Shown here piece after piece: positions 9,154-32,836 of a DNA stretch of 63,413 bases. The stretch spans positions 1-63,413 of the IMG/VR virus record IMGVR_UViG_3300017767_000008, one strand, 5' to 3'. The stretch is from a virus. Its lineage: Duplodnaviria > Caudoviricetes. How positions within the stretch are numbered: position 1 is the stretch's first letter; the number at the start of each line of letters is the position of its first letter. The notes beneath the pieces are model-generated. The model searched no databases. It saw only the letters and a program-made list of their open reading frames with translations, and was not told the origin of the DNA. The translations under genes and the position numbers were made by a program.

Positions 9154-9522
9154 TCACTTAGACGCATTCTTTGACGCTTTAGGACCAGGCATCGGCCCTG
9201 GTACTTCATCCCACTTAGATTTGATTTTATTTTTCTTCAGTCTTCTAGGGATCCATGAATTCATCTGCCACAAAGAAACAAACGTCATAGCCCCAACTAT
9301 GACCATTGATGCTGCCATTGCTACGTCAAAGACAAATGGCAGTCCTGGGTCATTGTCAATCGCATTAGGCATACCTGACACTGCCAACCAGAATACCACG
9401 CATAATGTTTGGTACAATCCGCAAATCAAAAGAATCCCTAATTGTATGACTCTTAGGTTCTGCATCTTCGAATGAACTCTGCTGAGTTCTTTGGCTTGGA
9501 TTTTTTCGAGAACGCTACTCAA
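9154..9522 (-). CDS. Two-TM membrane protein with a basic C-terminal tail
   Basis: Two hydrophobic segments followed by RRLKKNKIKSK. Confidence 0.7.
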   Translation of the reverse strand: MSSVLEKIQAKELSRVHSKMQNLRVIQLGILLICGLYQTLCVVFWLAVSGMPNAIDNDPGLPFVFDVAMAASMVIVGAMTFVSLWQMNSWIPRRLKKNKIKSKWDEVPGPMPGPKASKNASK

Positions 9523-9880
9523 GCTGATTCACCCCTTGATTTATCGGAAATAGATCAGCACTAAACAACTGAGTTCTATTTGCTATGCTTTTGCTGGCAC
9601 TATTCCTGATTTTCATTTCTTGCCATCCCTTCAAGCTGATCGGTTTGCTATCAAATATAATCCGATAAGCAGTGTGATACTGGGGGTTATTTTGGTATAT
9701 TTCTGGTCTATTTTCATCTGATTCTGTCTGATTATCTCTAAAATCAAAACAAATTGGATCAGTATATTTTGATTTTGTCTGTCGAGAAAGGACTACTCGC
9801 GTGTATGTAATGGCCTTAACGTTTGCAGCAAAAATATCCAGATAAGGAGATGAAACTAGAATTTTCTCAATCAACCCCAA
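9515..9880 (-). CDS. Hypothetical protein
   Basis: GGGGTGA SD; overlaps both neighbours. Confidence 0.6.
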   Translation of the reverse strand: MGLIEKILVSSPYLDIFAANVKAITYTRVVLSRQTKSKYTDPICFDFRDNQTESDENRPEIYQNNPQYHTAYRIIFDSKPISLKGWQEMKIRNSASKSIANRTQLFSADLFPINQGVNQLE

Positions 9881-11234
9881 TCACCCCTATGTTTAATCCC
9901 CAACAAACGGGAGATTTGTTGCGTGGTGGAATCTCATTTTCTAGCGCTTTTGCCGCCTCTTTAATCTCATCATTGCATTTTGAAAATTTATTTCGATGAC
10001 CCCATCTTTGTAATGTTCCGCCACCGCCCATTTTCTCTTTCCGAGTTCCTTCTTCTCCTTCTAGGACTTCACCTATTGCAGCCCATTGTAGCCCAGCGCC
10101 CCTTAGCAAATGTCGGCAAAGCCGATTCATCAATTTTGATTCATTGTCTTCATTGGGTGTAATTCCTAGAATGCTTTTCCAGTATGCTTCTTTCTCATCA
10201 TTTCCTAAAGAGGCCATGACCTTAACATGAATTGGCTTCGCTAATTGTTCTGCTCTTTCTTTTACGCATTCTGGAGGCCAGGGCGCTGCTGAATCAATTA
10301 GCGATTTCAATTTCTTATTTTCTTCTCGCCATTCGAACCAACTTGCTTTTTGTGTTTCGTAAAGAGTAATCCATGTACCAGCATCACCTTGATCCTCATT
10401 CAATTGAGTCATTGCTATACCTGGGTCATGTCTTCGAATCTCAGGAACCATTCTTCTGTAAATGTCCTTGAATGCTCTAATCGGCATATCTTCAATTCTT
10501 TCTCGGAGTTGGCGAAGACCTGAAAACCGGTCTAATGTCAATGCATCCATTTCTCTTCCGCGCTTGGAAGCCATTCTAGCTTGAACCATGTTCATAATCG
10601 TCCAGACGTTCATGTGCCTTGAACGCGTCAATTTTTCGGCCCATTTTTTCTGTTCTTTGGATACTGCCCCGCTTCTCAATTGGATCGGCACTTCGTCGTA
10701 AATTTCAAGCAATGGGAAATCTGCAGCATCCCTGCTAACTTGATACCAGTCAGGGCATCTAAACCATCCTGGCTCTGAAGGAACGTAGCCGTTCACGTCG
10801 CCATACACATAAACTCTAGGAGCGCCAAATTCTTGTGATAATTTCCAATTCCTTGATTGTATTAGCCAAATCTCGCCTATACCATAACTTGCGACTGACT
10901 TCCCCATTCCACGATCTCCATACAGAAAACATATATCGGCTTTGAATTCACAAATGAAACCCTGTAATAGCAGGTTCGAAGGATAAAGAACCATTGGGCC
11001 TAATTTTTTTTGACCATCTGGTTCATCAAGTAATGAGTCGGCATTGATTGGAACAACCTTCGCCCACGGAGCCCATCTTGTGAAGAACCACTTCAAAGTA
11101 GTCATGTCGATTCCGCCTTGACAATAAGTTCGATACGTTCTGCGAAGCGTTGCGAAAATTTCTGGAGGCATACCTTTTGAAATGCAAACTTTGTTGAAAT
11201 CCGCCCAATTGAGGTATTTTTCTGCACCTGACAT
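9867..11234 (-). CDS. P-loop NTPase, possibly FtsK/HerA-superfamily (Zot/packaging-type) ATPase
   Basis: Walker A FLYGDRGMGKS, Walker B LLEIYDE, downstream TRSRHMNV...MVQ (Arg-His plus sensor Gln pattern). Confidence 0.72.
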   Translation of the reverse strand: MSGAEKYLNWADFNKVCISKGMPPEIFATLRRTYRTYCQGGIDMTTLKWFFTRWAPWAKVVPINADSLLDEPDGQKKLGPMVLYPSNLLLQGFICEFKADICFLYGDRGMGKSVASYGIGEIWLIQSRNWKLSQEFGAPRVYVYGDVNGYVPSEPGWFRCPDWYQVSRDAADFPLLEIYDEVPIQLRSGAVSKEQKKWAEKLTRSRHMNVWTIMNMVQARMASKRGREMDALTLDRFSGLRQLRERIEDMPIRAFKDIYRRMVPEIRRHDPGIAMTQLNEDQGDAGTWITLYETQKASWFEWREENKKLKSLIDSAAPWPPECVKERAEQLAKPIHVKVMASLGNDEKEAYWKSILGITPNEDNESKLMNRLCRHLLRGAGLQWAAIGEVLEGEEGTRKEKMGGGGTLQRWGHRNKFSKCNDEIKEAAKALENEIPPRNKSPVCWGLNIGVIGVD

Positions 11235-12166
11235 TATTCTTCACTATCCTTTTCATCTTGGTACATCTCAAATTGCTCTGACAAACTCATCAGTTCTTCA
11301 TCGTTTGTAGGTCCGTCATCCATTGTTTGAAGAAGTTCATCAATATGTGATTCGTCGTAAATCGGTTCTCCTTCTTCATCGGATCTCATACGCTCATAGC
11401 AAGGATAGCAAATATCAATCATGTAAGGTCCATGTTCGTCTTCTCCTTTGACATATTCAGCATTGTTTCCACATTCCGAACATTCTCCAACGTCGATGTT
11501 TTGTTGTTGCTCTGGTTGCGATTCAACATAAACCGGGCCATCGGTTGAATCGACCCATACGCCTTCTTGTTGCTCTTGATGAATTTGTTGAGGGATAGGC
11601 TGAGGAATTGGAGCCTCCATTTGTGCTTCTTGTGTTGCTTGTTCTGCATTCATCAAAACAGTCTTGATTGATTCTTTGTCGAATCTATCTTTCGAGAATA
11701 GTTTGGCTAATTCGTTTGGATCAGCGCCATTTTGTGAAAGTCGAAGTAGTATTTGAGCGAGTTGTATTTGTAGCCTCGATGTGTTTTCAGCCATTTCTGC
11801 TTGACGTATTGCTGAAGCCATTGCGACGTTTTTGGGTTCAAGATATTCAAGTTGCTGACGGCTTGAGCGCAATGATACTGCTTGTGCATAATCCCCTAAA
11901 TCGTCAGGCCACATCGACCAATGAAGCAAAATACCATTTTCTAAAGGCATTCCGCATTGTTCGAGAAAGTTCCTATCGCAACTAGCGAGTTTCAACCAAA
12001 GAATGTGTTTAGCTCTTGGAGGCAAATAAGCCCATGAATCGGTCATTGAAAGAACCAGGGTATCGACTAAACGGAATTGGTCATTCAAACGATCCGATTG
12101 AGGAACCATGAACAAATCTCTGCCCGATCTCGGACGGAATGCAGGTGTACCATTTCCTTCAGCCAT
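11234..12166 (-). CDS. Hypothetical protein with Gln-rich linker, Zn ribbon and acidic tail
   Basis: CSECG...CYPC; Q/P-rich middle region. Confidence 0.75.
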   Translation of the reverse strand: MAEGNGTPAFRPRSGRDLFMVPQSDRLNDQFRLVDTLVLSMTDSWAYLPPRAKHILWLKLASCDRNFLEQCGMPLENGILLHWSMWPDDLGDYAQAVSLRSSRQQLEYLEPKNVAMASAIRQAEMAENTSRLQIQLAQILLRLSQNGADPNELAKLFSKDRFDKESIKTVLMNAEQATQEAQMEAPIPQPIPQQIHQEQQEGVWVDSTDGPVYVESQPEQQQNIDVGECSECGNNAEYVKGEDEHGPYMIDICYPCYERMRSDEEGEPIYDESHIDELLQTMDDGPTNDEELMSLSEQFEMYQDEKDSEE

Positions 12167-12839
12167 GTCTTTTCACTCCTGTTGCTTTGTAAAGTGCGCT
12201 GTAATTCAATTCATTTTCTTTGGTCAATTTCGATAGCCTTTGACCGACTTGTAATCCTTCAAGTGGCTCTTCAACGGTTATCTCACGCCCGCCTTCTTTG
12301 AAGAAGGATTTGAGACCTTTTTTCAATGGTTCAGTGTATGCTTTTCCAGCCAATGCAATAACTTGTGGTTCTTCTTCAGCATTTTCAACTGATGAATCGA
12401 GGCTCCAAATGTAAAGTTGGCTACTGACCATTTCCGCCCATTTCTTTTTTTGTTCCTTCGACAGCTCTGAAAGGGTTAAATCGTAATCTTCTATTTCTTG
12501 GTTCGGCCATACAACGCCATGTCTTGCAGATATGACAGCCCAGTTCAAACCTTTGCCTTCAGCCCATTCCTTTGATTTGTTGAATAGCGGAGAACAATAG
12601 GCATCTTTGGCTTTTAGCGATTCTTGGCCTTTGAACGCTTTTGTTTTGCTGCATGAAATCAAAACAAGCCTGTTTTGCCTGTGTTTGAGAACCTGCTTTA
12701 TGATCGACTGGCGATTTCTTTTGTTGTTTTGAATATGCCTCTGGGTGATTGGGTTCCAAATCATCCTTGAATGAAAAACGGACTTTGTTTTAGGTCCGTA
12801 TCTCCAACTTGTCGGTCTCTTTCTCATGTATCGCTTCAT
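12159..12839 (-). CDS. DUF6884-like protein with an N-terminal NPxT-I-QN-RNRQSI module
   Basis: LISCSKTK...AKDAYCSPLF...ISARHG...IEDYDLTL...LAGKAY...PLEGLQVGQRL. Confidence 0.72.
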   Translation of the reverse strand: MKRYMRKRPTSWRYGPKTKSVFHSRMIWNPITQRHIQNNKRNRQSIIKQVLKHRQNRLVLISCSKTKAFKGQESLKAKDAYCSPLFNKSKEWAEGKGLNWAVISARHGVVWPNQEIEDYDLTLSELSKEQKKKWAEMVSSQLYIWSLDSSVENAEEEPQVIALAGKAYTEPLKKGLKSFFKEGGREITVEEPLEGLQVGQRLSKLTKENELNYSALYKATGVKRHG

Positions 12840-13558
12840 TATTGAACACCTTCAATCTGATCCATTTGACCTGCTACATACTGCTGTGCAATCTCTTCGA
12901 GTTGTTGTTCGCGGAATCCTTGACGCATTGCCAAATCTTCTTCAGCCTGTATTTGTCCTCTTGACATTGAACCTGCAGTAGTTCGGAATTCAATATCCCA
13001 ATCACTGCCGGGTCGAGCATCTATCTCTAGCACGTTCGCCGTGACGTGGACTTTAGCCTTGTATCTCGATGAAAGGTCTTTAGGAACTCTGATTCTTTTT
13101 TTATCTCTGCGTGTCAAGATGAGGGCGCTGCCTGTATCTTCAATTTTCTTCAGGTAAGTCACCCGAGGAATACCAGGGTCATTTTCAACCCAATTTACTC
13201 TCGGCCATGAATTTGTGATCATGCTTGAAACAACTACGCCTATAGTGATGAAAAGTCCACCACAAGCAAATGCTTCGAATCTCGAATACGTTGGAGTTGC
13301 GAAGAATCCTTCGATTGGACCGTAAATCCACGCCCCAAGTCCTCCAATTGGAACTGCAACCCAAGAAAACATGAGAATTATTCCGGTAAGTATCAGTCCG
13401 ATTGAAGGAACCGAAGTTCTTTCTTTAGTTCTGTCAGAAAGATTTGATTGGTCATGCATCGGCGGTCCTTGAGGCATTTGCAGTCCTAATTCTTGCATTA
13501 GCATTGGGTCTTGAAACATAAGATCGTCGAATTCCATTCCGTCTGGTTGCATAATCAA
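12839..13558 (-). CDS. Two-TM membrane protein
   Basis: Met/Gln-rich N-terminus, two TM segments and a soluble C-terminal domain. Confidence 0.75.
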   Translation of the reverse strand: MIMQPDGMEFDDLMFQDPMLMQELGLQMPQGPPMHDQSNLSDRTKERTSVPSIGLILTGIILMFSWVAVPIGGLGAWIYGPIEGFFATPTYSRFEAFACGGLFITIGVVVSSMITNSWPRVNWVENDPGIPRVTYLKKIEDTGSALILTRRDKKRIRVPKDLSSRYKAKVHVTANVLEIDARPGSDWDIEFRTTAGSMSRGQIQAEEDLAMRQGFREQQLEEIAQQYVAGQMDQIEGVQ

Positions 13559-14508
13559 TATCTCCTGTATGGCGGGTTGCCGTATCTATTCCTTCCTCGC
13601 CAGTAGTCATCTTCTGCTTGTTGCCTTAATTTCCTTTCCCTTCTCTTTTCCATCCAAGAAGGCATATTGTCCGTACCAGCATCTTTTCTCCGCTTCAATG
13701 AATCTTCTCGCATTCTGAAGAAGATACTCGAAGCCCCGACCAAAACAAGAATAGATCCTATCGCCCCGAATAAAATGCTAATTGGGCTGACCAAAGTTGC
13801 GAACGGCTCAACACGTTCTAAATCTCCATAAATCCAAACATAAGGAGTTCCGTGAACTGTAAGTCCGCTGTCATCTGCACGTTCATAATTGAGCCATCCG
13901 TTTTCATCTTGTATGCTGTATCTCACGCCCAAGAATCCTTTCGGAGCTTGAATGTCTAAGTAGTTCGAGCCGTTGCTTAATACCCATGTTCGCCCAGGTA
14001 AAATGCTGTTGCCATCATCTAAGTATTCGCTGACTGTCAAATTCAGATGCTTTTGTAGCGGGGTCAGTAGGAATCTGCCTCCTTCTAAGAAACCTGCAGT
14101 GTATTGTTGTGGTGCATAAGTAATTCTTGTTCTTTGGGTTTCAGTTGTACTTTGAACTTCATTCACTTCACCCCAAGCATAAATGTAAAGCAATCCTACT
14201 GTATCCACTTTATCAAAAGTGATAGTTGAACGGATCCCCGGCTGAACTGAAAGTTCTTGTGTTTGCGCAAGTGTTGAATTCGGCCACCTGAGTTCTGCTG
14301 TCACTTGTATTGATGTTCGAGAAGGTTTGTCATCTTGAAACGCCATACCTTCGACAACTATCGAAATAGGTCGGTCATTCGGGTATTGAATGGCAGTATT
14401 CAGTCGCATTTCAACAATTTCAACGCTTTGTGCTGAAACCGTTTGCGCATTTACCAACAATGGCAATAACAAAATCGAGATGAGTAAAATTGATTTTTTC
14501 AAAATCAA
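13555..14508 (-). CDS. Type I membrane protein (signal peptide, beta-rich ectodomain, TM, basic tail)
   Basis: Start moved to TTG 14508 (GGAGG SD, overlaps the tspO stop). KKSILLISILLLPLLVNAQ signal; C-terminal TM followed by an Arg-rich tail. Confidence 0.75.
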   Translation of the reverse strand: MILKKSILLISILLLPLLVNAQTVSAQSVEIVEMRLNTAIQYPNDRPISIVVEGMAFQDDKPSRTSIQVTAELRWPNSTLAQTQELSVQPGIRSTITFDKVDTVGLLYIYAWGEVNEVQSTTETQRTRITYAPQQYTAGFLEGGRFLLTPLQKHLNLTVSEYLDDGNSILPGRTWVLSNGSNYLDIQAPKGFLGVRYSIQDENGWLNYERADDSGLTVHGTPYVWIYGDLERVEPFATLVSPISILFGAIGSILVLVGASSIFFRMREDSLKRRKDAGTDNMPSWMEKRRERKLRQQAEDDYWRGRNRYGNPPYRRY

Positions 14509-14882
14509 GCCTCCAGGAGATAAGCAATATTGAGCAAAGTCGCAAAAGAAACCCATGCAATATACGGCCAAACCAAAATAGATGCATATTGGCTAACCGG
14601 ATAAACAAGAATTGCATAGTACGTTGTTGTAGCTATGATGCCGACCAAAATCAAAGTCGAAAGCAGATATGATTCTGCGTTGAAGAAAGAAGTCCAAACC
14701 AAATTCAACGTTAATTGTACTGCAAATAAAGCAAAAACAAGATTTTGATTATCCAATTCATCCCTGTTGATCCAAGTTAGAGCAATGCTTGTTGCCATCG
14801 AAGTGTAAAGGAAAGCCCAAACCGGGCCGAATACCCAATCGGGAGGTTGGAAAGACGGCGTGTAATCGGAATCGAAAGACAT
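14505..14882 (-). CDS. tspO: TspO/MBR tryptophan-rich sensory protein (short form)
   Basis: PSFQPPDWVFGPVWAFLY, QLTLNLVWTSFF, LVWPYIAWVSFATLLN. Confidence 0.9.
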   Translation of the reverse strand: MSFDSDYTPSFQPPDWVFGPVWAFLYTSMATSIALTWINRDELDNQNLVFALFAVQLTLNLVWTSFFNAESYLLSTLILVGIIATTTYYAILVYPVSQYASILVWPYIAWVSFATLLNIAYLLEA

Positions 14883-15296
14883 TCAAATCACCCCGGAATA
14901 ATACAACCAGAACAAAAAGTCCGTGAATAGACGTATCAAGATTCCATACAAAGTACCCAAAGCAGCAATACGGATCAAGTCGAATTTGACTTTGCTCATT
15001 ATGTATGCTGTTCCGAATAAAACAACCATCACTGCAACCAATCCAAAACCTGTGCCTAAATCGGTTGCTGAATCAACCCAACTCCCCATTCCACCGAAAA
15101 GTCCGGCAAGACCTTCTAACGTCCATACTGCAAATGTGACTGACAAATTAAATCCTAGAAGAAGTGAACCCATGAACACTGCAAGACCCCAACCTTCGCC
15201 TTTTGCATTTCTCCAAGTTGAAGCGCCAATCAATACTGTTCCAATCATAATGACTATGATTGCTAATGATGGTGTTTCAGAACCAAATTGATTCAC
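14883..15296 (-). CDS. Four-TM membrane protein
   Basis: Start moved to GTG 15296 after a GGAGG SD; four hydrophobic segments. Confidence 0.72.
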   Translation of the reverse strand: MNQFGSETPSLAIIVIMIGTVLIGASTWRNAKGEGWGLAVFMGSLLLGFNLSVTFAVWTLEGLAGLFGGMGSWVDSATDLGTGFGLVAVMVVLFGTAYIMSKVKFDLIRIAALGTLYGILIRLFTDFLFWLYYSGVI

Positions 15297-15297
15297 T

Positions 15298-15771
15298 TTA
15301 CTCGCCTCCTTGTGAAAAACATGAGCAACCAGGGGGAGCGTTTTCTTTCGAAGGTGCATCAATTCCTAGCCACCCACAATAGCAAGCGCTATCAGCATCA
15401 ACTACTGCATCGGGATTTTCTGGGTCAAACCATGTTTCGTGCGGAATTTCCGTTTCATCAAGATTTTCGTTTTCATAACGTGGCGATTCTTCCGCTTCAA
15501 TTTCTTCGAGCGTGCTTATTTTTCCACCATGCGCTTTTTCCATTGCTTCATCCCATGCTTGATCCGCCAATATTCTCAATTCTTCTCTTTCCATTCGAGC
15601 TATGAAATTCAAATCGTATCCGTGATTCGGGTCAAGGTTAGGGATATACAAACCAGTATTTGCACACCACATTTGATTTTCTTCTTCGTCATCGACAACT
15701 AAAACGATTACTTCATATCCTAAAGCAAGCGCATCTGCGACGACCATTTCTAAGGTCGGTTTAACGTCCAT
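15298..15771 (-). CDS. Acidic hypothetical protein, first gene of the membrane/ATPase operon
   Basis: Start ATG 15771; CYC...CSC near the C-terminus; conserved upstream element at -61. Confidence 0.7.
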   Translation of the reverse strand: MDVKPTLEMVVADALALGYEVIVLVVDDEEENQMWCANTGLYIPNLDPNHGYDLNFIARMEREELRILADQAWDEAMEKAHGGKISTLEEIEAEESPRYENENLDETEIPHETWFDPENPDAVVDADSACYCGWLGIDAPSKENAPPGCSCFSQGGE

Positions 15772-15929
15772 AGGCAAAATAATTGAGCATTCTGCATTAT
15801 CATCTCTTTGGATGAATTAGATCAATTCGCATATTTTTGAAGAAGTGCGAGGGAGCCTCGAAAGCCGGTGAGAATTGTCAGCCCCCCCACGTTTTTTTGT
15901 GGACGTTAGAGGCTTTTAGGCTTTGCCAA

Positions 15930-17351
15930 TCACTGATTATTCAATTGACGGCGAAGTTGCGAAAGCGACATTCCGCCTCTAATTTCTGGTTGGTTTGTTT
16001 CGGATGGTTTGTAGGAATCACAAGAATTCAAATCGAAGCAGATTGAATTGTAAATGGTTGATGTGATTGCATCATAACTGACTGATTCATTGCAGACCAT
16101 AACAGAGGCATAAATTGGATCATCGTCGTTCCAGTCCTCCATCAAAGCATAAGGCCATTGTTCGCCCGATTTCCTCCATTGACTTACCTTAGAGAAGATG
16201 TAATTTCCTCTTGATTTGACAAGAGAATCATAATTTTGTAGTTCCTTTTTGTAATTGTCCTTTTGCCCTGGAGTCATACCATTTATCACACGGATACGAT
16301 TTTTGAAGTTGTCATTAGATCCAGATGGCATACCCGCCCAATTCGGAAGATTTCTGCCCGATTCATCGCGTTGAGTTGTTTCTTTTTCATTTCTAAGGCG
16401 GTCAAGAAGTTGTTTTTCTTCTTGATTCTCTAAGCCCCATGATTTGATAGCCCACTGAATAACTGAATGAGCCCTAAATGATGATAACGCTTTTTCTTCT
16501 TGAGCCAAAAATCCTTCATCTTTGTGAATTGTTTGTTTAGACTGAGATAAAGCAATTTGCTCTGAAGTGAGTTCTTCTTCTTCCCAATGAGGTTTGAGTC
16601 GAGCAACGGATTTTACGCCCGTTGAAGTCATTTGTTTTCCTTGATGTTTCGACTTTCTTATGTTCCAATGAATAGGACACCTGTATCTTAGATCGTCACA
16701 CAAATGAACTGCTATTGTATCATGGTGATGAATTGTTTCCCATCGACCATCCCTGCTTATCCTTTCCCTATCTCCGCAATCATCTCCGATTTCGCAGCAA
16801 TGGTATCCTTCATCTGTAATCAAATGCTGAGGATGGAGGTTGTCAATTATCCGAAATTCTTGACCAGCAACCGGTCCTCTTTTCGTTTGTTCATATTTCG
16901 AAAGTAATTCTTTGTAGGTTGCTAGAGCTTCAGAACCACTTCTCGGAAGAGGGCTGATACTTGTTGTTGCATCGAAAAATAAGAAAATTCTTAGTTGCCT
17001 CAATTGAGTTAATCCGGTTTGACCAAGAATATTTCTCATATAATCAGCCTTCGCCAATTCCAAAGGCAGTCTGCCTTCTGATGATTGGAGCCTTTTTCGC
17101 GCTGAATCTAATTGCTCTTGGATCTGTTCAACTTCTTTTTTCTGATTTTCAACCATGATTTCCATAGGATGCTTCATTTCACTCTCGCCTAAAGCCGAGC
17201 GTAGTGCAATCGAGTATAATTCGCTGCAATTTATGTTTGGATTCATCCTTGCTAAATCATGCAAATGCTTCACGTCTGCTGGGAGATACAGCGAAACTGC
17301 TCCACCACTAATCTTCAAAATCTTACTATCTTTCCTTGACATTTTTCTCAC
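15930..17351 (-). CDS. RHH-like N-terminus, coiled coil and Cys/His cluster; candidate replication or regulatory protein
   Basis: VSLYLPADV...INCSELYSIALR (RHH-like), heptad region, HCC...C...HLC...CPIH. Confidence 0.7.
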   Translation of the reverse strand: MRKMSRKDSKILKISGGAVSLYLPADVKHLHDLARMNPNINCSELYSIALRSALGESEMKHPMEIMVENQKKEVEQIQEQLDSARKRLQSSEGRLPLELAKADYMRNILGQTGLTQLRQLRIFLFFDATTSISPLPRSGSEALATYKELLSKYEQTKRGPVAGQEFRIIDNLHPQHLITDEGYHCCEIGDDCGDRERISRDGRWETIHHHDTIAVHLCDDLRYRCPIHWNIRKSKHQGKQMTSTGVKSVARLKPHWEEEELTSEQIALSQSKQTIHKDEGFLAQEEKALSSFRAHSVIQWAIKSWGLENQEEKQLLDRLRNEKETTQRDESGRNLPNWAGMPSGSNDNFKNRIRVINGMTPGQKDNYKKELQNYDSLVKSRGNYIFSKVSQWRKSGEQWPYALMEDWNDDDPIYASVMVCNESVSYDAITSTIYNSICFDLNSCDSYKPSETNQPEIRGGMSLSQLRRQLNNQ

Positions 17352-17474
17352 CGACCTTTTGTGCGAGATGATTAAGGGATAAAAAGATTCACCTTTACTT
17401 GCATGATTATCGTTTCATTTACTTCGAGCATCGAAAGCGTTTGGAAATCTGCTCTTATCTGCGTAATAATTTTG

Positions 17475-17615
<141 letters not shown>

Positions 17616-17846
17616 AACGATTATCATACAAATGGATTTTTTTGAACCATCATACATTTCTCACATACAAAAAACATGAGGCTCCAGTAAGCCCACGTTT
17701 TCAAAAACCATCCAAAGGAATTTCAATGAAAAACTCGCAACCACAAATCAAACATTCATATTTTTGACAATCCTGTAATTGTGGTGAATGGATCGGTACG
17801 ACACCGACCATTTCAACGCATTCGGAACCGCACTCGAAGCACCTGG

Positions 17847-18248
17847 TCATTCGACATTCCCCGCAACATCGGGGTTCATTTTGAAAACAGAAGGATTCGA
17901 ACGCTCCTTTAGCAAGAACCCCTCATCAACAAAGCGATTACAAGAACGATGAAGCGTGCGGTGGTCTTGAAAACCCAATCCTCTAAAATCTTCATGCGGT
18001 ACTAAAGAACCGTATGAACGTAAATGCTCAAGGACATTGTGCAAAGTAATCAAATGTTCTCTTCTCAATGATATTTCACGATCCATATTCACTCGGACGA
18101 ATCTTTTGCTTATTTTCAGTTTCATTTGAGCATTTTCTTCAATGACTCTTTCATGGCGAAGCTCTAATTCCTTCAAACGTTTCTTCAATTGCTGGGCTTC
18201 TTTCTTGTAGCCGTGTAATTGGAAAGAAGTTAGACGGTCTTCAGTCAT
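17847..18248 (-). CDS. Coiled-coil plus C-terminal winged-helix protein
   Basis: Start moved to ATG 18248 (MTEDRL), overlapping the previous stop; RTLHRSCNRFVDEGFL wHTH-like. Confidence 0.65.
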   Translation of the reverse strand: MTEDRLTSFQLHGYKKEAQQLKKRLKELELRHERVIEENAQMKLKISKRFVRVNMDREISLRREHLITLHNVLEHLRSYGSLVPHEDFRGLGFQDHRTLHRSCNRFVDEGFLLKERSNPSVFKMNPDVAGNVE

Positions 18249-18519
18249 TGACAGCCCCCCATATTGTCGAAGAGTATAATTTTCCAGAAATGTTCCGTAT
18301 TTTTTCCTCGCCAATTTTTTCAAATCGGCTATCGCCTGACAATACCGCAGCCAACTCGGACATTGTGATTCCACTATTCCACGTTGAATTGTATTTTGCT
18401 AAGATGATGTGAATGTTTAGATCACCATGTTCAGAGAGCATTTTCAAAACGCGTGTCCTGGGGTGGTTTGTTGCGTAATAAGAACGGAGCCGTCGAGGAC
18501 CTTCATGCATCACGGCCAC
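18241..18519 (-). CDS. DUF3860-like winged-helix protein
   Basis: VLKMLSEHGDLN...YNSTWNSGITMSELAAVLSGDSRFEKIG; matches the C-terminal domain of 40343..42847. Confidence 0.65.
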   Translation of the reverse strand: MAVMHEGPRRLRSYYATNHPRTRVLKMLSEHGDLNIHIILAKYNSTWNSGITMSELAAVLSGDSRFEKIGEEKIRNISGKLYSSTIWGAVND

Positions 18520-18695
18520 TTCCCTATTTTCTTTGCTGATTTGTTTTCTTCTTGCTCGATAATGTGGTGGGCTTTGTTTCTCGCTGCTTCTCGAACAAAT
18601 TCTGCTCTCGAAGAAAAACCGCCCTTTATTTCCATTGCCCGATCAATAAGAGCTACAAGTTCTGGTGGAAAATGAACAGCATTTGATGAAGCCAT
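18510..18695 (-). CDS. Ribbon-helix-helix (CopG/NikR-type) regulator
   Basis: AVHFPPELVALIDRAM...GFSSRAEFVREAAR. Confidence 0.85.
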   Translation of the reverse strand: MASSNAVHFPPELVALIDRAMEIKGGFSSRAEFVREAARNKAHHIIEQEENKSAKKIGKWP

Positions 18696-18840
18696 TGAGT
18701 CTAAGGTTGAGCCTTACGCCTTATGGGTCTTTTGGTCATTAAATGGCAAAGGAAAACAAAGAATTTTGCGTCTTTGTAATCCTTTGAAGGGCAATAAAAG
18801 CCATAATTTGATGTTATCGAAGTCAATATCATGCAGTTTG

Positions 18841-18883
18841 AAAGTGTGCATATCGGGTACTTTCACCCGCTGTTTTCATATAT
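18841..18883 (+). promoter_or_regulatory. Shared promoter: AAAGTGTGC element plus TTTCATATAT box
   Basis: GTGC at 18846 is 61 bp before ATG 18907; same geometry at eight other operon starts (see findings). Confidence 0.65.
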
Positions 18884-18906
18884 CATCCTTTGACGAACGC
18901 TCTCCC

Positions 18907-21900
18907 ATGCAGACCGGCCAATCGCCAAATTTGACTAGCAAAGCACTAACCCTGACAGTACTATTTCTCGCTTCAGTAATGATCGGATTAGTTTCAGCAG
19001 AAGTTCCTGATGGAGATGGAACGACTGGAATCGACCGAAATCCAACACCATCTGAACAAGATGGCGTTTCAATTAGCAGGGATTATGACGGCCAAAACGT
19101 CATGTCAAAAGATACCCTTACAATCAATAATGGGTGGATGATGACTCAAGCCGGAACGAGTACAACTGGGGATAACACATATTCTAAAGATACAGGCGAA
19201 TGGACTGCAACCGGAGAAACCGTTGCTGGCGAAGGTCCTATGCAATACAACTCACATGATTCTGGAGTCCGACAAAGCAATCTTGATGTTCAAGTTGCTT
19301 CAATTGGCGGCTCTGGAGGCGGAGTCACCATCGACGTTACTGATGCTTCAGACGGTCTAGGTGGAGATTCAATCACAATGACTCTTCAGAACTGGTATGG
19401 TGCTATTGATCGCTCAACTGCACACGGAGTCGGAACTGGAGTAAAGGCCGCTGGACTTGACGGATGCCAAGGTGCATCAACTGTCAACGTGCAAATGTGC
19501 GGACTAAACCAGGGCGAAAACGGAATCGACGCTGGAATCCCAACTCAAGTAGCAATGATGCCAAATGAAGGAACTAACACCTTCAGCTACGGAATCATGG
19601 CTGGCGTGGAATCTGCTGCGCTCACCTTCGGAATTGATTATGAAACAACTCACTCATTCGATGTTTATGTCAACGGAGTTCACGAAGAAATCGGAAATAC
19701 AAAATCCGTTTCTGTACTCGATGACGTTGTATTGCGCTGCAAGGCTGTAGCACCTGCAACATCTTGTGATGAATCGGAAATTCAACTTGGAATGCCTTCA
19801 GCTTGGAAGTCAACTTCAATTGTGGCTCTTGGCGGGGATCCAGCAATCCTCGATGACAACTACAACGCAACAGTTCGACTTGCCGTTTTCAGCGACAACA
19901 TTGTAAAACTCACCTTTGGAACCGCTGCTGAACACCAATCAAACATCACTGCTCAAGATGGAGTCTTTTACGATCCATCAATTTCTTTCCTAAAGGATGA
20001 GCCAGGTGTCCGTATCGGACAAATTGAAGATGGCGGTGCATCATGGTGTGATTCTTGGTGGTTCTTGGCTAAGTGCGGAGATTCACTTTCATTCGACGGT
20101 GACTCATCTGACGGGATGGATGGGCTTATGCTACATTACAAGGTTCCAGTTGAAGCAATGATTTCTCAGGATGCTTGGGGCGGATATGACAAAGCACAAC
20201 TTGTACTCCATCATGGCAAGCAATCTGCAGAACAATGTTTCAATGGAGAAATCCAAACCTACGTTGTTCCTCCAAGTCAAATTAGCGAAGTTCGAACAAA
20301 GAAGAATTTGCTACAGTATGCGATCACTGGAGATTACTACTCCATGAGCGAACCAACTTCGGCTTATTCAACTGGTACAACTCGCGTTGGAACTTCAACT
20401 GCAGATTATTGCTTCGGCCCTGGTACGCAAGATGGTTCAACAACTGTTGACATTGGGCGAATCGCTCAAATGACCGGAACTTCACCTTACACTGAATACC
20501 AGAACGGATTCTATGACATTGATTCTCAAATGTATGAATTCTATGTCATTGTTTCAATCGAGGCAAGCACCGATCTAAACGCAAACGCTGACAACAAATT
20601 GGATGAGTTCGCAATTGACACCGGAGCAGATACAGGAAGTTCACAAGCAAGCAGCGCAGAGCCAGGATTGGTTTTGCAGAACACCGTTGCTCGAAACCCA
20701 CTACAGGATTTTGCACCGAATGAATACCGTTCAACAAGCACCACAAATCAAATCAACCCTGCATTCGGCAGTTCTTACGTCATGTATTACTCTGGAATTA
20801 CACCATCTGACAATGTTGTAGCTGGAACAAACTTGACTGCTCAAGGAAGCACGCCTTCAGATAACTGGGGCGGAATCTATTACGGAACTCAAAATGGCGA
20901 AATGGTTCGAAAGCCAACTAACGTTGCAGTTCATCTCCCAACCGGAGAAGCATTCAATGATTCAAACATTGGACTTGCTCAAACAAACACAACCGCACTT
21001 TCGACAATTGAATGTGGACTCGCTGCTCTTGGTGGATCGCCAGTTTCAGCAACAATTGAAATCTTTACCAGTGTTGACACAAGCGAATACTACGGATACG
21101 GAGTCAACGGTAGCAACTACCCAGCAACAGAACCAGTTTGGAAAGCATACGGCGCACTTACGACCAACTCTTCTCGATGGCTACAAGCCCCTCCAACTCA
21201 AGGACCGGCTTCATCATTTTGGGCTGTTGACAATTCAGAATCGAACACCGGAAGCGCTACAGTTTCATTCACTGGCGCTTTCTTGAACAGCGACAACTAC
21301 AAGGCAACTTGCACTTTCGTTTATCATTCTTCAGATATTGGCGCTAACAACGCAACCACGGTCACACTGACCAGTGATTACTTCTTCACTGCAGCATTCG
21401 ACGGGAACTACGTTGGTTCTGGTGGCTCAGATGTTTCAGAAGATGACGACGGATTCCTAGACGACTTCGAAGGATGGGATTACGTTATCATCGGAATTGC
21501 ATTGACTCTTATCGGACTTGGCTTGTATATGTGGAGCAGCGGAAGCGGCATCACATCTTGGTTCGATGACCGATTGGCAATGATGCTACTTGGTGTCGCA
21601 ATCCTCCATGCGTGGGTCGCAGCAATGTATGGCCCTGATGGAACGGGCGATCTAAGCGAAGACACGGCAATGGCTGTAGGAACGCTTGGATACCTAGTGA
21701 TGGCTCTTGCGGCTTTCCTATGGGGCAACGCAACAAGCAACCAGGGCGAGCGCAACTTCCGATTCGCTCTTGGCGGACTTTACTTGATTGTGATTGGAGT
21801 TCCAACTGCACTAACAGGTCTTCTAAACGTTGAATCCGAATTCCTTCAAGATGCAATGTGGACTTTCCCAGTTTATGAGGCGGTCGCAGGTCTTGGAGCA

Positions 21901-21969: not shown

Positions 21970-22536
21970 ATGGAATGGACTAATACAGATTACATTACAA
22001 TTGGAGTTTCAATCATCACGATCCTTGCCGGAATTTACATTCTAGGGCGACGTGAAGCAGATGGAGCATGGGGTCTTGGGCTATGGGATGCTCGAATCTT
22101 TGCAGCATTTTTGACTTTCTTTGGTCTTGGGTTGTTAGCAATGTGGTTCTCGAATCTTGGCGGACTGGTCGGTGACTATGAAGCAAGAATGTTCGAGGAT
22201 CAACCAGAAGTTCTTGAAACGATAGGATTCCTTGCAGGGCTATTCTTTACTATTGCAGCAATCTCAGCTTCAGTATTCGATAAAGAAGCACCTTTGCCTA
22301 ACTGGATGAGAAACCTTGTGGCCTTGCTAGGTCTTGGTGTTTTGTTTGCATCTGGATTGACAATTACGGTTCAAGCGTTTTACAACGCTGACTTCACTGG
22401 AGAATTCCTCGGAATAACCATGCCTTTGTTCCCAATGAATGAATTCCTTGCCTCTATCTGGACTGCTGGACTTCTTTCTCTATGCGGTGCTGCACTATTG
22501 GGCGTTGTTTCAAACGCTAGAGAAGCCGTCGAATGA
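21970..22536 (+). CDS. Five-TM membrane protein, paralog of the C-terminal membrane domain of 18907
   Basis: DYITIGVSI...WDARIFAAFL...FPMNE versus DYVIIGIAL...FDDRLAMMLL...FPVYE. Confidence 0.8.
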   Translation: MEWTNTDYITIGVSIITILAGIYILGRREADGAWGLGLWDARIFAAFLTFFGLGLLAMWFSNLGGLVGDYEARMFEDQPEVLETIGFLAGLFFTIAAISASVFDKEAPLPNWMRNLVALLGLGVLFASGLTITVQAFYNADFTGEFLGITMPLFPMNEFLASIWTAGLLSLCGAALLGVVSNAREAVE

Positions 22537-22549
22537 GGACGGTGGAATC

Positions 22550-23245
22550 ATGGATCTCGATGAACTTGAACTAATCAAGAACGTCTATGGATGGTTTTGC
22601 ATTGCACTTTTCGCCTTTTGGGGTGGAGAAATTCTTTTCAGAAACAAACCAGGAACAACTCAACGTCTGCTATCAATGGGTATTGTAGGATGGTCCGGAT
22701 ACATTTCTTTAGGCAGCGAAGCAGCAAGTATTGATTTCTTGCTTGATTGGATCATAACCGTTCCTTTGATTTTCCTTAGTTTGTCATACAAGGGAATCGG
22801 TGAAGGATGGAGATACAACACCTTGCTACTTGGTTTTGTTTCGATTGGAGCAATCCTATTAGCTGGAGATGATTTCGATTATCCTACACTATTGACACTT
22901 GTAGCAATCCTTTGGGTTTTGGTATTCATTCGCGGAATGATTGGAATTACAGGCCGAAGCGGTCTTTTGGTTCCTGGGGATGAAACGGATTTTTCGCGGT
23001 TCTCTATGTTCGAGAAAGCAACGTATGTCCTTTTGATTGCATACCCGCTACTATTCTTCTTGGCAGGTTCAACTGTCAATGATATGGATGCTTATGCCGG
23101 TTCAATGCTCGATGATTGGGGGATCCATTACTACACATACGCTACTATTCTGATTTTACTTTCTGTAGTATGCAAAATTGGTCTTTCAATTTATCATGTG
23201 ATGACTGACCCCGAAGGTGGCTTGACCGAACGTTCAACTTTTTGA
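22550..23245 (+). CDS. Divergent type-1-like microbial rhodopsin (7 TM)
   Basis: Start ATG 22550 gives 231 aa. Helix C DWIITVPLIFLS, helix F AYP, helix G LSVVCKIG with a retinal Lys candidate. Confidence 0.65.
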   Translation: MDLDELELIKNVYGWFCIALFAFWGGEILFRNKPGTTQRLLSMGIVGWSGYISLGSEAASIDFLLDWIITVPLIFLSLSYKGIGEGWRYNTLLLGFVSIGAILLAGDDFDYPTLLTLVAILWVLVFIRGMIGITGRSGLLVPGDETDFSRFSMFEKATYVLLIAYPLLFFLAGSTVNDMDAYAGSMLDDWGIHYYTYATILILLSVVCKIGLSIYHVMTDPEGGLTERSTF

Positions 23246-23255
23246 GGTGAACTTG

Positions 23256-23612
23256 ATGGCTTGGTGGAATCCGGTTATTGGGCGAAGAGGCCCTGGAGAA
23301 ACAGACCAAGTATTGTTTGATGCATGGTCATTTGTTCATTTTTTTTCGGGGCTGTTGTTGTGGAAATTAGGACTCGATGCTAACGTCGCAATAATGACGC
23401 TAATTGTTTTCGAACTTATTGAGAACTACGGAGGCGGGGTTATCGTTTTTAATTGGCTTGGGAGAAATTTTGGTTGGATCAAGATATTCGATGAACAAGC
23501 AGATTATCAGGGCGACTCGACCGGAAACATGGTGATGGATATACTCATTGGGGTTTCTGCCTATGCTCTTGCGTGGTTTGAAATTATCCCACTTGGGGCG
23601 ACTTTATTTTGA
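23256..23612 (+). CDS. DUF2585-like membrane protein (putative intramembrane metal site)
   Basis: FDAWSFVHFFSG...FELIEN...YQGDSTGNMVMD. Confidence 0.65.
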   Translation: MAWWNPVIGRRGPGETDQVLFDAWSFVHFFSGLLLWKLGLDANVAIMTLIVFELIENYGGGVIVFNWLGRNFGWIKIFDEQADYQGDSTGNMVMDILIGVSAYALAWFEIIPLGATLF

Positions 23613-29547: not shown

Positions 29548-30869
29548 ACCGCAATTATCGAAGAGCAAGGCGATTTGGAAATAACACATATCGTCTTTTG
29601 AGGACTTTTCCTCACGTCGATTCAAGGGGCAATCTTAGATCGCCCGAAGCTACAAAACTTCAAGCCGAACAGCAAGCCGATTTTTACAGAAACAAAGGAT
29701 TCAATGCAAGGGTTGTAAATTGGGTCGGAGGCTCTGGGATTTACCTTGGCAGAAGAAACCCAAGAACCTATTACAAAACAAAAGAAGAAGCAAGAAAGCA
29801 ATGGATGAAAGATATTGAACAAAATGATTACAATGCAGCAGCATTCGGTGTAGGAATGTCATTTTCTAATTCAGCCCAAGCCGGAGATTCTATCTTCTCT
29901 GCAGAAGCGGCAGAATTGGTTCCCAATCCAGAATACAAGTACAAAAATTCAATGTCAACCCTCGAAGATGCCTTAGAAGAAAGCAACGTAATTCCGGTCC
30001 ACATAGCAGAGCCGAAAGATGAGAATTATTCTAATGGTTTCGGACGCTCCCTTCGAATGGCTGGCTCACTTGATGAAGTCGGAAATTACGGGCAGATTGG
30101 TTGGGGTCCAGGTGAAATTCCACAAAAAAGAATGCCTCAAAAAATTGACAATCAAAGGTCGAGATTCAGAGTTGTGCTTTCTTTCAATCAAACCGATGAA
30201 CAAGGCCCAGGGGTCGGAGAAAGGCCGACTTATGCTTTCGCTACCAAAGAAGCAGCAATGAAATTTTCAAACAAACTAAAAGAAATGATTGACAAAAATG
30301 GATATTACTTGGAGGGAGGAACTTTAGAAAGCGGGGGAATGACGGTTAGATCACCTGCATTCGCCATCCCTGCAAATCAAATTGAAGTCGAGATTGTCAA
30401 AGAAGAATCAGGATTTGCTCAAAGGGCAGCAGATGAAGCTAGGGGGAGCATCGAAAGAAACCTCGATAGCCTTTTTCCATTAGGAAATGAACCTCCTGGC
30501 TTGATGGAAAATAGAAGGATGGCTGAATTGGACGTTGATTTTTCTAAGTTGGAAAAGGCTGCAAAGGATAAAATCGAACAGATGAAAAGAAGAACATCTA
30601 AAGTGGCGTTGACGGATTTTAGAAAATGGATGAAAGGCGAAGACAATTCATCAAGAGAAAATTCACTGCCATCAGCACCGCCACAACAGAATCTTTGGCC
30701 GATCACTGGAGCCGATGTTCTTTACATCGAGGACAAATTGCGTGAAAGGGATGGCTTCAATGAAAATATATCGCTTGCTGACAATATCAAAAACATGGTT
30801 GGAATGCAAGCATATCAAGAACTTATGGATTTCAACCAGCGGGCGAGGGAAAATCGGAGGGGTCTATAA
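29544..30869 (+). CDS. Tag-module protein of unknown function
   Basis: N-terminal RRFGNNTY...QADFYRNKGFNARVVNWVGGSGIY. Confidence 0.8.
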   Translation: MNRNYRRARRFGNNTYRLLRTFPHVDSRGNLRSPEATKLQAEQQADFYRNKGFNARVVNWVGGSGIYLGRRNPRTYYKTKEEARKQWMKDIEQNDYNAAAFGVGMSFSNSAQAGDSIFSAEAAELVPNPEYKYKNSMSTLEDALEESNVIPVHIAEPKDENYSNGFGRSLRMAGSLDEVGNYGQIGWGPGEIPQKRMPQKIDNQRSRFRVVLSFNQTDEQGPGVGERPTYAFATKEAAMKFSNKLKEMIDKNGYYLEGGTLESGGMTVRSPAFAIPANQIEVEIVKEESGFAQRAADEARGSIERNLDSLFPLGNEPPGLMENRRMAELDVDFSKLEKAAKDKIEQMKRRTSKVALTDFRKWMKGEDNSSRENSLPSAPPQQNLWPITGADVLYIEDKLRERDGFNENISLADNIKNMVGMQAYQELMDFNQRARENRRGL

Positions 30870-32836
30870 TGGCCGCTAGAATAAGGCGATTCAGAATTAA
30901 GGGAGATCCAACCCGATTTGACATATTTGGACTCGGCTGGAACAAAGCAAATATGCGGCGGGCTGCTGAAATAATAAGAAATAACGGATATTATGCAAGA
31001 GTTATCCCAAGCGGTTTTGACAAGACTATGAATTTACAAAAATATGCGTTATTTTACAGTCCAAAAAAGGCAACCCAAAGAGTAAATTTGGATGAAGCAT
31101 ATACAGGAATAGGACTGTCAAAAGATAGTTGGCGGTGGTTGAGGGAAAACAGTAGCAAGGTTGACCATAGGAAATTGACACCATCAAATCGAATGTTGCC
31201 TCAAAGAACTTCAACTTGGATTTTTAACAGACGATTGCCCGATGAAAAGTTCAATGAAAATGATTGGGATAAAGCACTTGCAGATCCCGATGGTGAAGAA
31301 CTGAGCAAGATGGATAAGGTGATTGCGAGAAGATTGGATATGAGCGTTGAAAAGTACATCGAACAAAGAGATTACGGGGAATCTGAAGCCCTCGAAGAAG
31401 AGGAAAGCGATGAAAATTATGAAGAACCTTGGTGGGAAAAAGAAGGAATGTATTACGATCCATTAGAACGATTTACAAAAGGAACAATAGCCGATTTAGA
31501 AGCAAGAGGAAAACAATCAGAAGAAATGCGCATGGAAGAAAAAAAGAACCGGGGAACTCAAACTGTAGCTTCAGAAGAAACATACCAGGGTGAAGGTTTC
31601 GATGATGACGACGAAAACGAAGAAGAAGATAATTGGACTGGCGACGACAAATACATGGAAATGATGGATTTTATCGGATACAATGATTCAGTATGGCGCG
31701 GTTTGAGCCCAACGATCCTAATGGGCTATCAGGGCAGCGTGTACGATGAACACGTCTTAGACGAAAAATCCTATGAAAAATTGTTGGATGATGCCGAAAG
31801 GCACAAGAAAAAATCACAAAAAAATGCTGAATTGTTTTTCTCTGGTTCGGGCAGGTTTTCGGACTTTGCCAAGTATGCCGAACGTTTGGGGGCTCCAAAA
31901 GAGAAAGACATTATCGCATTGCCCGTAGTATCACTCCGATATTGGAATGATGATAAAGAGCAATTGGAGTACCAACCGGATGATGACGGGCAAGACCGTT
32001 CTGCAGCATTGATGGTGAATGCAATCGGCAGTTGGTATTTGCACCCCAAAGTGCAAGAAACACTTTTTGATTTGCATTATGGAACGGGAGCCAAAGACTC
32101 TATTTTTGCTGCTGAAATGGCTATGCTACAATACGTCTTTAGTGGCGGAGGCGGATACCAAGAATTTTCGAATGCCGTCACTTGGAATGATGATATGCTA
32201 AATGAAAGAGTCCATGAGAATATATTGAATATTGGAGAATGGGAACTCCCACGACACGGCGTTAAAACGCCCGAAGTTGTTGTAGTCGGAACAGACATAG
32301 GTTTTTTCGACAGCAGAGGCCAACAACTCGGAATTAGAATAACTCCGGACACGGATGATGAAGTTGGTTGGGATCCATTCGGGGAATCAATCTCAGGAAC
32401 AAAATTCCCTCCATTCATCGAGTCCTTGTTCAAAGGACAGGAAGATTGGAACACTTCTGCAGTGAGTCAGGTATATTGGCGCGGTGAGCGAGTGTATGGA
32501 GATAGTGATCCAGCGAGAGGCGAAGTTCGAGAATGGCCCGATGAAACATTCTTCTTACTCAAAAATGACTTGACGGGCGAATTGAGCCCTGGTGAAATCG
32601 CTGGAATTTATGTCGGAAATACCCTAAACCTAAGCAAAGAAGAAGCACAAGATTATGTCAACAGGCACGCAACTTATGGTGCCGATTACGAAAACGACCA
32701 AGGCATAGATTACAGAGTATATGAAAATGAAGATTTCCTACAAGAAGCCAAAGACAGGAACGCATTAACTGTAAAACAATTCGCCAAGAAATACAAGTTA
32801 TCACAATGGAAAGAAGCAGAATTGAAACGTAAATAG
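30869..32836 (+). CDS. Tag-module protein with a very acidic body
   Basis: N-terminal RAAEIIRNNGYYARVIP...YALFY; D/E-rich tracts. Confidence 0.8.
   Translation: MAARIRRFRIKGDPTRFDIFGLGWNKANMRRAAEIIRNNGYYARVIPSGFDKTMNLQKYALFYSPKKATQRVNLDEAYTGIGLSKDSWRWLRENSSKVDHRKLTPSNRMLPQRTSTWIFNRRLPDEKFNENDWDKALADPDGEELSKMDKVIARRLDMSVEKYIEQRDYGESEALEEEESDENYEEPWWEKEGMYYDPLERFTKGTIADLEARGKQSEEMRMEEKKNRGTQTVASEETYQGEGFDDDDENEEEDNWTGDDKYMEMMDFIGYNDSVWRGLSPTILMGYQGSVYDEHVLDEKSYEKLLDDAERHKKKSQKNAELFFSGSGRFSDFAKYAERLGAPKEKDIIALPVVSLRYWNDDKEQLEYQPDDDGQDRSAALMVNAIGSWYLHPKVQETLFDLHYGTGAKDSIFAAEMAMLQYVFSGGGGYQEFSNAVTWNDDMLNERVHENILNIGEWELPRHGVKTPEVVVVGTDIGFFDSRGQQLGIRITPDTDDEVGWDPFGESISGTKFPPFIESLFKGQEDWNTSAVSQVYWRGERVYGDSDPARGEVREWPDETFFLLKNDLTGELSPGEIAGIYVGNTLNLSKEEAQDYVNRHATYGADYENDQGIDYRVYENEDFLQEAKDRNALTVKQFAKKYKLSQWKEAELKRK

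Follow-up and report, generated by a model that had tools for sequence, protein, structure and literature searches.

The virus record IMGVR_UViG_3300017767_000008 (Duplodnaviria; Caudoviricetes; 63,413 nucleotides, analysed over its whole length and referred to below as the window) is a complete 63-kb record with a 123-base terminal overlap. It carries a gene whose product, P0001, had been read from the letters alone as an atypical microbial rhodopsin (below, the original prediction). The gene at 22550-23245 is real, and we regard its conservation, its profile-level homology to rhodopsins and its predicted fold as established. The longest open reading frame (ORF) called mechanically starts earlier, at 22439, where it overlaps the upstream gene; the ATG at 22550 is the start common to all seven close homologues, M1 being invariant there, and has a Shine-Dalgarno-like sequence in front of it (Table 1). 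Seven helices are found both by a hydropathy scan of P0001 and in the later AlphaFold2 (AF2) model. DNA sequencing runs of several studies, marine and viral-fraction, contain the stretch, and parts of 22302-23355 recur without any difference (100% identity) in contigs from three RNA libraries of three studies; these contigs report the presence of the gene, not its transcription, and cover parts only, gaps in their cover meaning nothing.

Profile-level homology and predicted fold of P0001

Close relatives of P0001 form seven clusters at 57-100% identity in a set of 5.8 billion proteins, and a search of 1.84 billion yielded 10 representatives at E<=0.001, one of which, P0010 (3413 aa), proved to be a tandem-repeat false positive whose 32 repeats each match ~30 residues. 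P0017 (197 aa) matches residues 1-89 of P0001 only, and a profile search added P0018-P0022 to the family. Alignments were made without P0010, P0017, P0021 (194 aa, 72% of the query) and P0022 (282 aa, 21% of the query), and conservation was assessed over 20 family sequences that are 28-89% identical to P0001; the homologues whose collection the original prediction had proposed thus amount to a small family, aligned down to 28% identity. Within it, a longer subclade (P0016, P0019 and P0020; loci L002, L008 and L009) of 303-326 aa bears a C-terminal tail of ~80-100 extra residues with further hydrophobic segments.

The relationship to type-1 rhodopsins is visible at the level of profiles only. 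Nine of the 10 relatives scanned match PF01036 (Bac_rhodopsin) at E<=1, and one of the 10, P0011, passes the Pfam gathering cut-off for that family (24.9 against 24.6 bits), which P0001 itself fails; P0019 has a precomputed PF01036 match. The relative P0014, searched against the PDB with phmmer, gave two chance matches only. When a profile of seven family sequences was run against the PDB, all seven matches at E<=10 were rhodopsins, the best being KnChR at 4.7e-4. A 14-sequence profile reached 130 distinct PDB sequences at E<=1, and among the matches listed all 60 are microbial rhodopsins: Anabaena sensory rhodopsin (ASR; 1xio, E 3.8e-7) comes first, the marine-actinobacterial rhodopsin MAR (5jsi, 9.7e-7) is in fourth place, and xanthorhodopsin-like Kin4B8, NsXeR and archaerhodopsins are among the other leading matches. 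The DWxxT.PL and YP motifs of the family align in register with those of the rhodopsins. We also compared the family with a reference set of 87 full-length proteorhodopsin/xanthorhodopsin-like ORFs taken from genome contigs that had been scanned for the family's own helix-3 motif: local hhalign joined the two at a probability of 88.6 (E 2.6e-6, 256 columns), and the top score with the family hidden Markov model (HMM) went to L014, a rhodopsin from an Acidimicrobiia metagenome-assembled genome (39.8 bits), a ranking that is biased and only a hint because the set was picked by that very motif. A feature search of a protein atlas returned rhodopsin clusters at 0.87-0.88, under the 0.9 line and therefore a lead only.

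The structure prediction agrees with the profiles. Computed on 20 sequences, the AF2 model of P0001 has a predicted local distance difference test score (pLDDT) of 84.2 and a predicted template modelling score (pTM) of 0.81, with helices at residues 3-30, 37-55, 63-80, 85-105, 112-134, 153-171 and 194-218. Foldseek against the PDB gave microbial rhodopsins in 41 of the 41 matches listed (best E 2.1e-4), and with VIA-align all 50 matches listed were rhodopsins (Z 16.1-17.2; root-mean-square deviation (rmsd) of 3.4-4.2 Å over 184-203 residues). A structure search independent of Foldseek placed rhodopsins at ranks 1-36 (Z 17.2-11.9), followed at ranks 37-50 by other seven-transmembrane (7-TM) proteins, namely a designed fold like that of G-protein-coupled receptors (GPCRs), TMEM87A and GPCRs (Z 11.1-9.0). 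The structural check that the original prediction had named, whether the model is a 7-TM rhodopsin fold, thus comes out in favour of one: the model has the seven-helix rhodopsin fold, at Z 12-17 for rhodopsins against 11.1 at most for other 7-TM folds, and Z favours no single rhodopsin subfamily in these comparisons. The putative outer loops of P0001 (2, 4 and 6) hold no K/R and nine D/E, and its inner loops (1, 3 and 5) together with the tail hold six K/R, a trend also seen across the family; by the rule of thumb for such charge bias, the N terminus is predicted to lie on the outside, which is the orientation of type-1 rhodopsins and the reverse of that of heliorhodopsins.

In the published literature on viral, phage and prokaryotic-virus rhodopsins and on SxxxK type-1 proteins we came upon neither this clade nor the virus lineage; Table S1 of PMC9601134 may list members. 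The suggestion of an undescribed rhodopsin clade therefore gains from the profile homology, the predicted fold, the conserved motif set and the silence of the literature, and the P0001 family is likely to be a small, rare and very divergent clade of type-1-like microbial rhodopsin that has so far escaped description.

Conserved residues of the putative retinal pocket

Across the 20 sequences, D66, W67, T70, V71, P72, L73 and I74 of helix 3, Y165 and P166 of helix 6, and S205, C208, K209 and H216 of helix 7 are invariant. The HMMER alignment of the family profile to ASR 1xio pairs F63, L64, D66, W67, T70 and S77 with chain residues R72, Y73, D75, W76, T79 and S86 (chain numbers counted from the printed start of the alignment, residue 33), and these we take to be the positions of R82, Y83, D85, W86, T89 and D96 of bacteriorhodopsin (BR). 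D66, aligned with ASR D75, is the carboxylate at the BR D85 position within DWxxT.PL. At position 63 the family has F, P, W or L, with a gap in one sequence and Arg or Lys in none of the 20; position 77 is S in 17 (DTS) and A in three (DTA). Three residues before Y165, L162 falls by arithmetic at the BR W182 position. The arginine of BR R82 (0/20) and the aspartate of BR D212 (Ser in 20/20) are thus both absent across the family. The original prediction had read helix C as D/T/S with F for R82 and L for Y83, helix F as keeping YP with L for W182, and helix G as SVVCK with the lysine kept and Ser at D212; the alignment to ASR bears out the first of these readings, Y165-P166 and L162 answer to the second, and S205 and K209 recur as described in every family member. 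Its remark that R82 is nearly invariant needs softening, since substitutions are less unheard-of than it implied: the available part of PMC9601134 reports Arg82 substitutions in many clades (‘Alt-rhodopsins’), with F, L and similar residues seen fewer than 10 times each.

The conservation is one-sided. On helix 7 the invariant residues L201, L204, S205, C208, K209, L212 and H216 lie within 77 degrees of one face, the variable residues being opposite, and F63, D66, W67, T70, I74 and S77 of helix 3 likewise share a conserved, presumably interior, helical face. In P0001, helix 7 (194-218) has K209 as its only lysine, which stands 15 residues into the helix and on the conserved face. This arrangement fits a buried chromophore and ion path, not a lysine that faces lipid.

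Table 1. Features in and around the P0001 gene and elsewhere in the window.
Feature	Position	Strand	Remarks
Divergent rhodopsin-like gene, P0001	22550..23245	+	231 aa then stop; 7 predicted TM helices
Shine-Dalgarno-like GAGG...GGTGG	22535..22545	+	5-15 nt upstream of ATG 22550
Helix 3 motif FLLDWIITVPLIFLS (residues 63-77, F63 to S77, with D66, W67 and T70)	22736..22780	+	HMMER alignment to ASR 1xio
Helix 6 Y165-P166 (BR Y185-P186 positions)	23042..23047	+	aligned to YP of ASR and of Acidimicrobiia rhodopsin
Helix 7 motif S205-V-V-C208-K209-I-G-L-S-I-Y-H216	23162..23197	+	K209, candidate Schiff-base Lys; S205 = K-4 (BR D212 position); H216 = K+7
Giant protein 1 (spike-1), 1064 aa	18766-21960	+	acidic; signal peptide, multi-TM C-terminal tail
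188-aa multi-TM protein	21970..22536	+	linked to the upstream giant protein rather than to the rhodopsin
121-aa small membrane protein	23247..23612	+	recurrent neighbour of the rhodopsin gene; weak DUF2585 (E 0.086) is the sole Pfam match
Giant protein 2 (spike-2), 1541 aa	23682-28307	+	acidic; signal peptide, multi-TM C-terminal tail
Bona fide heliorhodopsin, 361 aa	61090..62175	+	N-terminal extension ~105 aa; PF18761, E 1.1e-70

Gene order, the co-encoded heliorhodopsin and the virus genome

In the window the gene does sit between the genes of two spike-like giant proteins, as had been pointed out, but this siting is specific to the genome and not conserved. A rhodopsin homologue is present in all nine related loci (two viral, seven metagenomic), and in none of the nine is a homologue of either giant protein found within the 3-6 kb flanks of the rhodopsin. 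G001, a complete relative, has 37 of the 49 window proteins in common; its homologues of the two giant proteins (34% and 27% identical), its 188-aa protein and its thrombospondin type-3 (TSP3) protein all lie within 8849-19473, the 188-aa homologue (16516-15974) coming directly after the spike-1 homologue (19473-16549), and its rhodopsin lies at 30821-31504, ~11 kb from the spike-1 homologue and adjoining a GP88-family gene. The G001 homologue of the 121-aa protein is placed away from the rhodopsin. Since the nine loci and G001 differ from the window in this respect, the position between the spikes carries no functional weight, and the idea that it had inspired, an opsin repurposed as an envelope protein, draws no support from gene order. 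The large ectodomains of both giant proteins gave no family match. Other neighbours vary from locus to locus: L001 and L004 have homologues of the 121-aa protein and of a 145-aa membrane protein (53778-54215 in the window) directly upstream of the rhodopsin, L003 has a heliorhodopsin homologue directly upstream of it, and in L002, L008 and L009 a GP88-family gene is followed by the rhodopsin.

The window also encodes a bona fide heliorhodopsin (Table 1). G001 carries one too; the search for it covered the whole record for G001 and the flanks only for L001, L003, L005 and L009. Relatives of this long form make up ~27 clusters (333-394 aa), of which nine lie on 59-71 kb contigs, and the nearest cellular heliorhodopsins (~49% identity, 260-280 aa) belong, where named, to Acidimicrobiia/Actinomycetota. 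P0001 has no PF18761 match at E<=1, and hhalign of its family against the window heliorhodopsin was not significant (probability 0.26, 20 columns), the sole paired stretch being LSxxxK of helix 7. A TspO/MBR family protein (14505-14882, minus strand, E 4.8e-30), kept in G001 and L002, is a tetrapyrrole-binding membrane protein and brings to three the pigment- or light-related membrane proteins that the virus has.

The families found among the 49 ORFs of the window are DNA ligase, SNF2-type helicase, exonuclease, GP88, DUF932, DUF6884, TspO, TusA, DUF5754 and heliorhodopsin; no capsid, portal or large-terminase match appeared in Pfam or PHROGs. Shine-Dalgarno-like 5-mers precede 18 of the 34 ATG genes, compared with 3.5% of random windows, and many genes overlap stop-to-start; because of these two traits we take the host to be a prokaryote. 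A eukaryotic host, raised by the DUF5754 match and by an oligo-dT library that holds the sequence, was rejected on the same grounds, and a haloarchaeal origin, raised by the acidic membrane proteins, was dropped because the genome's proteins are for the most part not acidic and because every source sample is marine. The virus group, which is little known, probably infects bacteria, and the window appears to belong to a ‘dark’ viral lineage whose ribosome-binding sites are of prokaryote type. Other phages of marine actinobacteria, tailed and distinct from the present lineage, are described in the available part of PMC7771536.

Several further genes are of interest in their own right. A TusA sulfurtransferase domain (E 4.8e-18) occupies residues 258-328 of an 834-aa protein (40343-42847, plus strand) that is otherwise without a family. 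A very acidic protein (34% D+E) with TSP3 repeats continues from 62277-63413 into 1-384 (plus strand), across the two ends of the record, in keeping with a circularly closed assembly. Many large basic proteins without a family, located at 28645-61023 of the window and at 1-12504 of L001, share at their start or end a ~40-residue basic stretch (...A..IA...R..G...R.I....GYR.Y.G), one copy of which is covered by the DUF5754 match at 59021-59596; a module for DNA binding or packaging that these proteins share is one possible reading of the stretch.

Proposed function and comparison with known rhodopsins

We propose that an uncharacterised lineage of marine prokaryotic viruses, roughly 60-70 kb in size and also carrying heliorhodopsin, has this clade as a recurrent gene. 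P0001 would most likely reside in the cytoplasmic membrane of the host, its N terminus on the outside, and, judging from the conserved residues, would most likely hold retinal at K209 via a Schiff base with D66 as sole counterion; that it binds retinal at all seems to us quite likely. Ordinary outward pumping is disfavoured because there is no Arg at R82, Ser205 stands at D212 and the D96 position (Ser77) offers no carboxylic donor. The invariant, ionisable His216 would lie two turns cytoplasmic of K209. Our preferred reading is a protein of xenorhodopsin/ASR type, in which light would move the Schiff-base proton towards the cytoplasm, giving net inward transport, a leak or a sensory switch. 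Transfer in that direction is favoured because the residue pattern (non-Arg at 82, Asp at 85, Ser/Ala at 96 and a neutral residue at 212) is that of xenorhodopsins and ASR, and because His stands at K+7. By this analogy an inward or leak direction is a tentative proposal, plausible but short of probable, and P0001 may be a new kind of light-driven protein.

A number of observations weigh against this interpretation. As a single query P0001 matches no Pfam family at E<=1, no PHROGs entry at E<=0.001 and, with phmmer, no PDB sequence at E<=10. The HMMER alignments to solved rhodopsins end before helix 7, and hhalign, both global and local, sets the Schiff-base lysine of the references two residues before K209, with a 7-residue gap; since no alignment pairs K209 with a reference lysine, its equivalence rests on its position in the helix and its conservation, not on alignment. 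Two tryptophans of the BR retinal pocket are replaced, W182 by L/I and W189 by F/Y/W/V, an equivalence of positions that we assume by counting residues. AF2 run on seven close sequences gave an unusable model (pLDDT 45.2), and the good model therefore depends on the alignment; in Foldseek its TM-scores are just 0.43-0.60, with rmsd of 4.8-8.6 Å. No retinal-synthesis gene was found among the 49 ORFs with Pfam. Finally, His at K+7 differs from the Asp of xenorhodopsins and ASR, and no partner residue for it has been identified.

Some of these points lend themselves to other explanations. P0001 might be an unrelated 7-TM protein that resembles rhodopsins by chance or convergence, given that alone it finds no database match and that helical bundles can reach middling structural Z; the uniform list of 60 rhodopsins among the PDB profile matches listed, the lead of up to 6 Z units that rhodopsins hold over the best other 7-TM fold, and the two motifs in register leave this explanation a very slight chance. 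The loss of two pocket tryptophans would also suit a protein that descends from an opsin but has lost retinal binding and has a structural, envelope or other membrane role in the virus, the alternative that the original prediction had raised. The virus has no capsid gene recognisable in Pfam or PHROGs, and in the window the gene belongs to a block of membrane proteins between two giant secreted, membrane-anchored ones. That siting is absent from all nine related loci and from G001, however, and the lysine, the counterion Asp, W67, YP and a whole helical face stay invariant down to 28% identity; invariant residues of chromophore type are hard to explain without a chromophore site, which argues against a non-retinal structural role, and we hold it to be improbable.

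If retinal is bound, it may still do other work than the preferred reading assigns to it. Viral capture of energy genes is common, and a DTS-type outward proton pump could, as the product of an auxiliary metabolic gene, provide the infected cell with extra energy. DTG/DTS outward pumps keep R82 and D212; the present family, DTS or DTA throughout, departs from their pattern in having neither the Arg nor the second Asp in any of its 20 sequences. D66/T70/S77 does match DTS, and DTG/DTS rhodopsins pump outward without a cytoplasmic donor according to the available part of PMC8927995, but the residues at BR R82 and D212 govern proton release, as stated in the accessible text of PMC9601134, and with the first missing and Ser at the second we consider a pump of this kind quite unlikely. 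A photosensor or regulator comparable to ASR or to most heliorhodopsins would bind retinal, move no net charge and signal to a partner, possibly the small membrane proteins that are frequent neighbours of its gene or the heliorhodopsin. ASR is the best PDB sequence match and shares the D/T/S pattern of helix 3, the usual outward-pump residues are absent, and the genes upstream of the rhodopsin encode the 121-aa and 145-aa membrane-protein homologues in L001 and L004 and the heliorhodopsin in L003. These neighbours vary, though: in G001, L002, L008 and L009 a GP88-family gene adjoins, and the small proteins lie away from the rhodopsin. Nor is a soluble transducer or signalling domain fused to the protein, the longer members adding only C-terminal hydrophobic segments. 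A sensory role is, in our judgement, rather unlikely, if worth keeping in mind.

Returning to the xenorhodopsin/ASR-like reading, the full picture would be that of an undescribed virus lineage, probably of marine Actinomycetota, equipped with a set of two rhodopsins, a long-form heliorhodopsin and a member of the new clade with its motif (F/P/W/L)-D-T-S-S-K, Cys ahead of the lysine and His at K+7. The latter would use light to transport protons inward, or would form a light-gated proton leak, with His as the cytoplasmic acceptor, and would allow the virus to tune the host membrane potential by daylight; taken with all its parts, this picture is speculative and on balance doubtful. To our knowledge, giant viruses of eukaryotes are the source of the viral rhodopsins described so far. 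In the present case the two rhodopsins belong to a 63-kb virus whose translation signals are of prokaryote type, and one of them is so divergent that standard annotation misses it; the long-form heliorhodopsin marks a ‘dark’ viral lineage whose biology appears to be tied to light. Should P0001 bind retinal, it would enlarge the range of sequences that make a working rhodopsin (by one with neither Arg82 nor Asp212, with Cys-Lys and with His at K+7), provide a natural test of the residues that set the direction of proton transfer and possibly offer an optogenetic scaffold; should the inward-transporter reading be true, it would be the first functional type-1-like rhodopsin from a virus of prokaryotes, as far as the literature was searched.

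Among known systems, the xenorhodopsins (NsXeR, BcXeR) and ASR have in common with the family an Asp at D85, no carboxylate at D96 (S/A at position 77), a neutral residue at D212 and an ionisable residue at K+7; NsXeR also has a hydrophobic or aromatic non-Arg residue at R82 (F/P/W/L in the family), and the P0001 model counts BcXeR and NsXeR among its best structural matches (Z 16.2-16.8). We take the lysine of ASR to be residue 210, which would make its Asp217 K+7. Unlike xenorhodopsins, the P0001 family has Ser instead of the conserved Pro at D212 (20/20) and His instead of Asp at K+7, and unlike NsXeR it has Thr rather than Ser at the T89 position; an invariant Cys immediately precedes its Lys, its identity to xenorhodopsins and ASR is ~17-23%, and it is found in viruses. 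Since Ser and not Pro stands at 212, and since the Pfam cut-offs of both rhodopsin families are failed, no named subfamily fits and we file the protein as a type-1-like variant. In NsXeR, according to the available part of PMC5609834, retinal sits on Lys213, a conserved and crucial Pro209 takes the place of D212 and Trp73 that of Arg82, the retained Asp76 is essential, and the proton of the Schiff base passes to His48-Asp220, the proposed cytoplasmic acceptor, Asp220 being K+7. Asp217 of ASR controls inward proton transfer, as reported in the accessible portion of PMC3198991.

Heliorhodopsins resemble the family in the SxxxK of helix 7 (S205 and K209, both invariant; the motif as defined in the part of PMC9601134 available) and in a single carboxylate counterion in helix 3. 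Against solved heliorhodopsins the P0001 model reaches Z 14.6-16.1 (48C12 at 16.1). Unlike them, the family has Asp and not Glu as counterion, a helix-3 DWxxTxPL of the type-1 kind and an N terminus predicted to be outside. With the proteorhodopsin/xanthorhodopsin-like proteins of Actinomycetota (MACR, acidirhodopsin-type) it shares the helix-3 DW(L/I)(L/I)TVPL; those proteins keep Arg82 and DxxxK and pump outward. Both rhodopsins of the virus have a link to Acidimicrobiia, the heliorhodopsin being nearest to theirs and the P0001 family finding its top reference, L014, there, in a set picked by motif. Like the Alt-rhodopsins of PMC9601134, among whose substitutions the available text includes F, L and P, the family lacks Arg82 and occurs in viruses. 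That same text places a viral H-type clade with DxxxK on contigs of giant viruses (nucleocytoplasmic large DNA viruses, NCLDV); in contrast to these viral Alt-rhodopsins, the present family combines F/P/W/L at position 82 with SxxCK in a 63-kb virus with Shine-Dalgarno-like sites.

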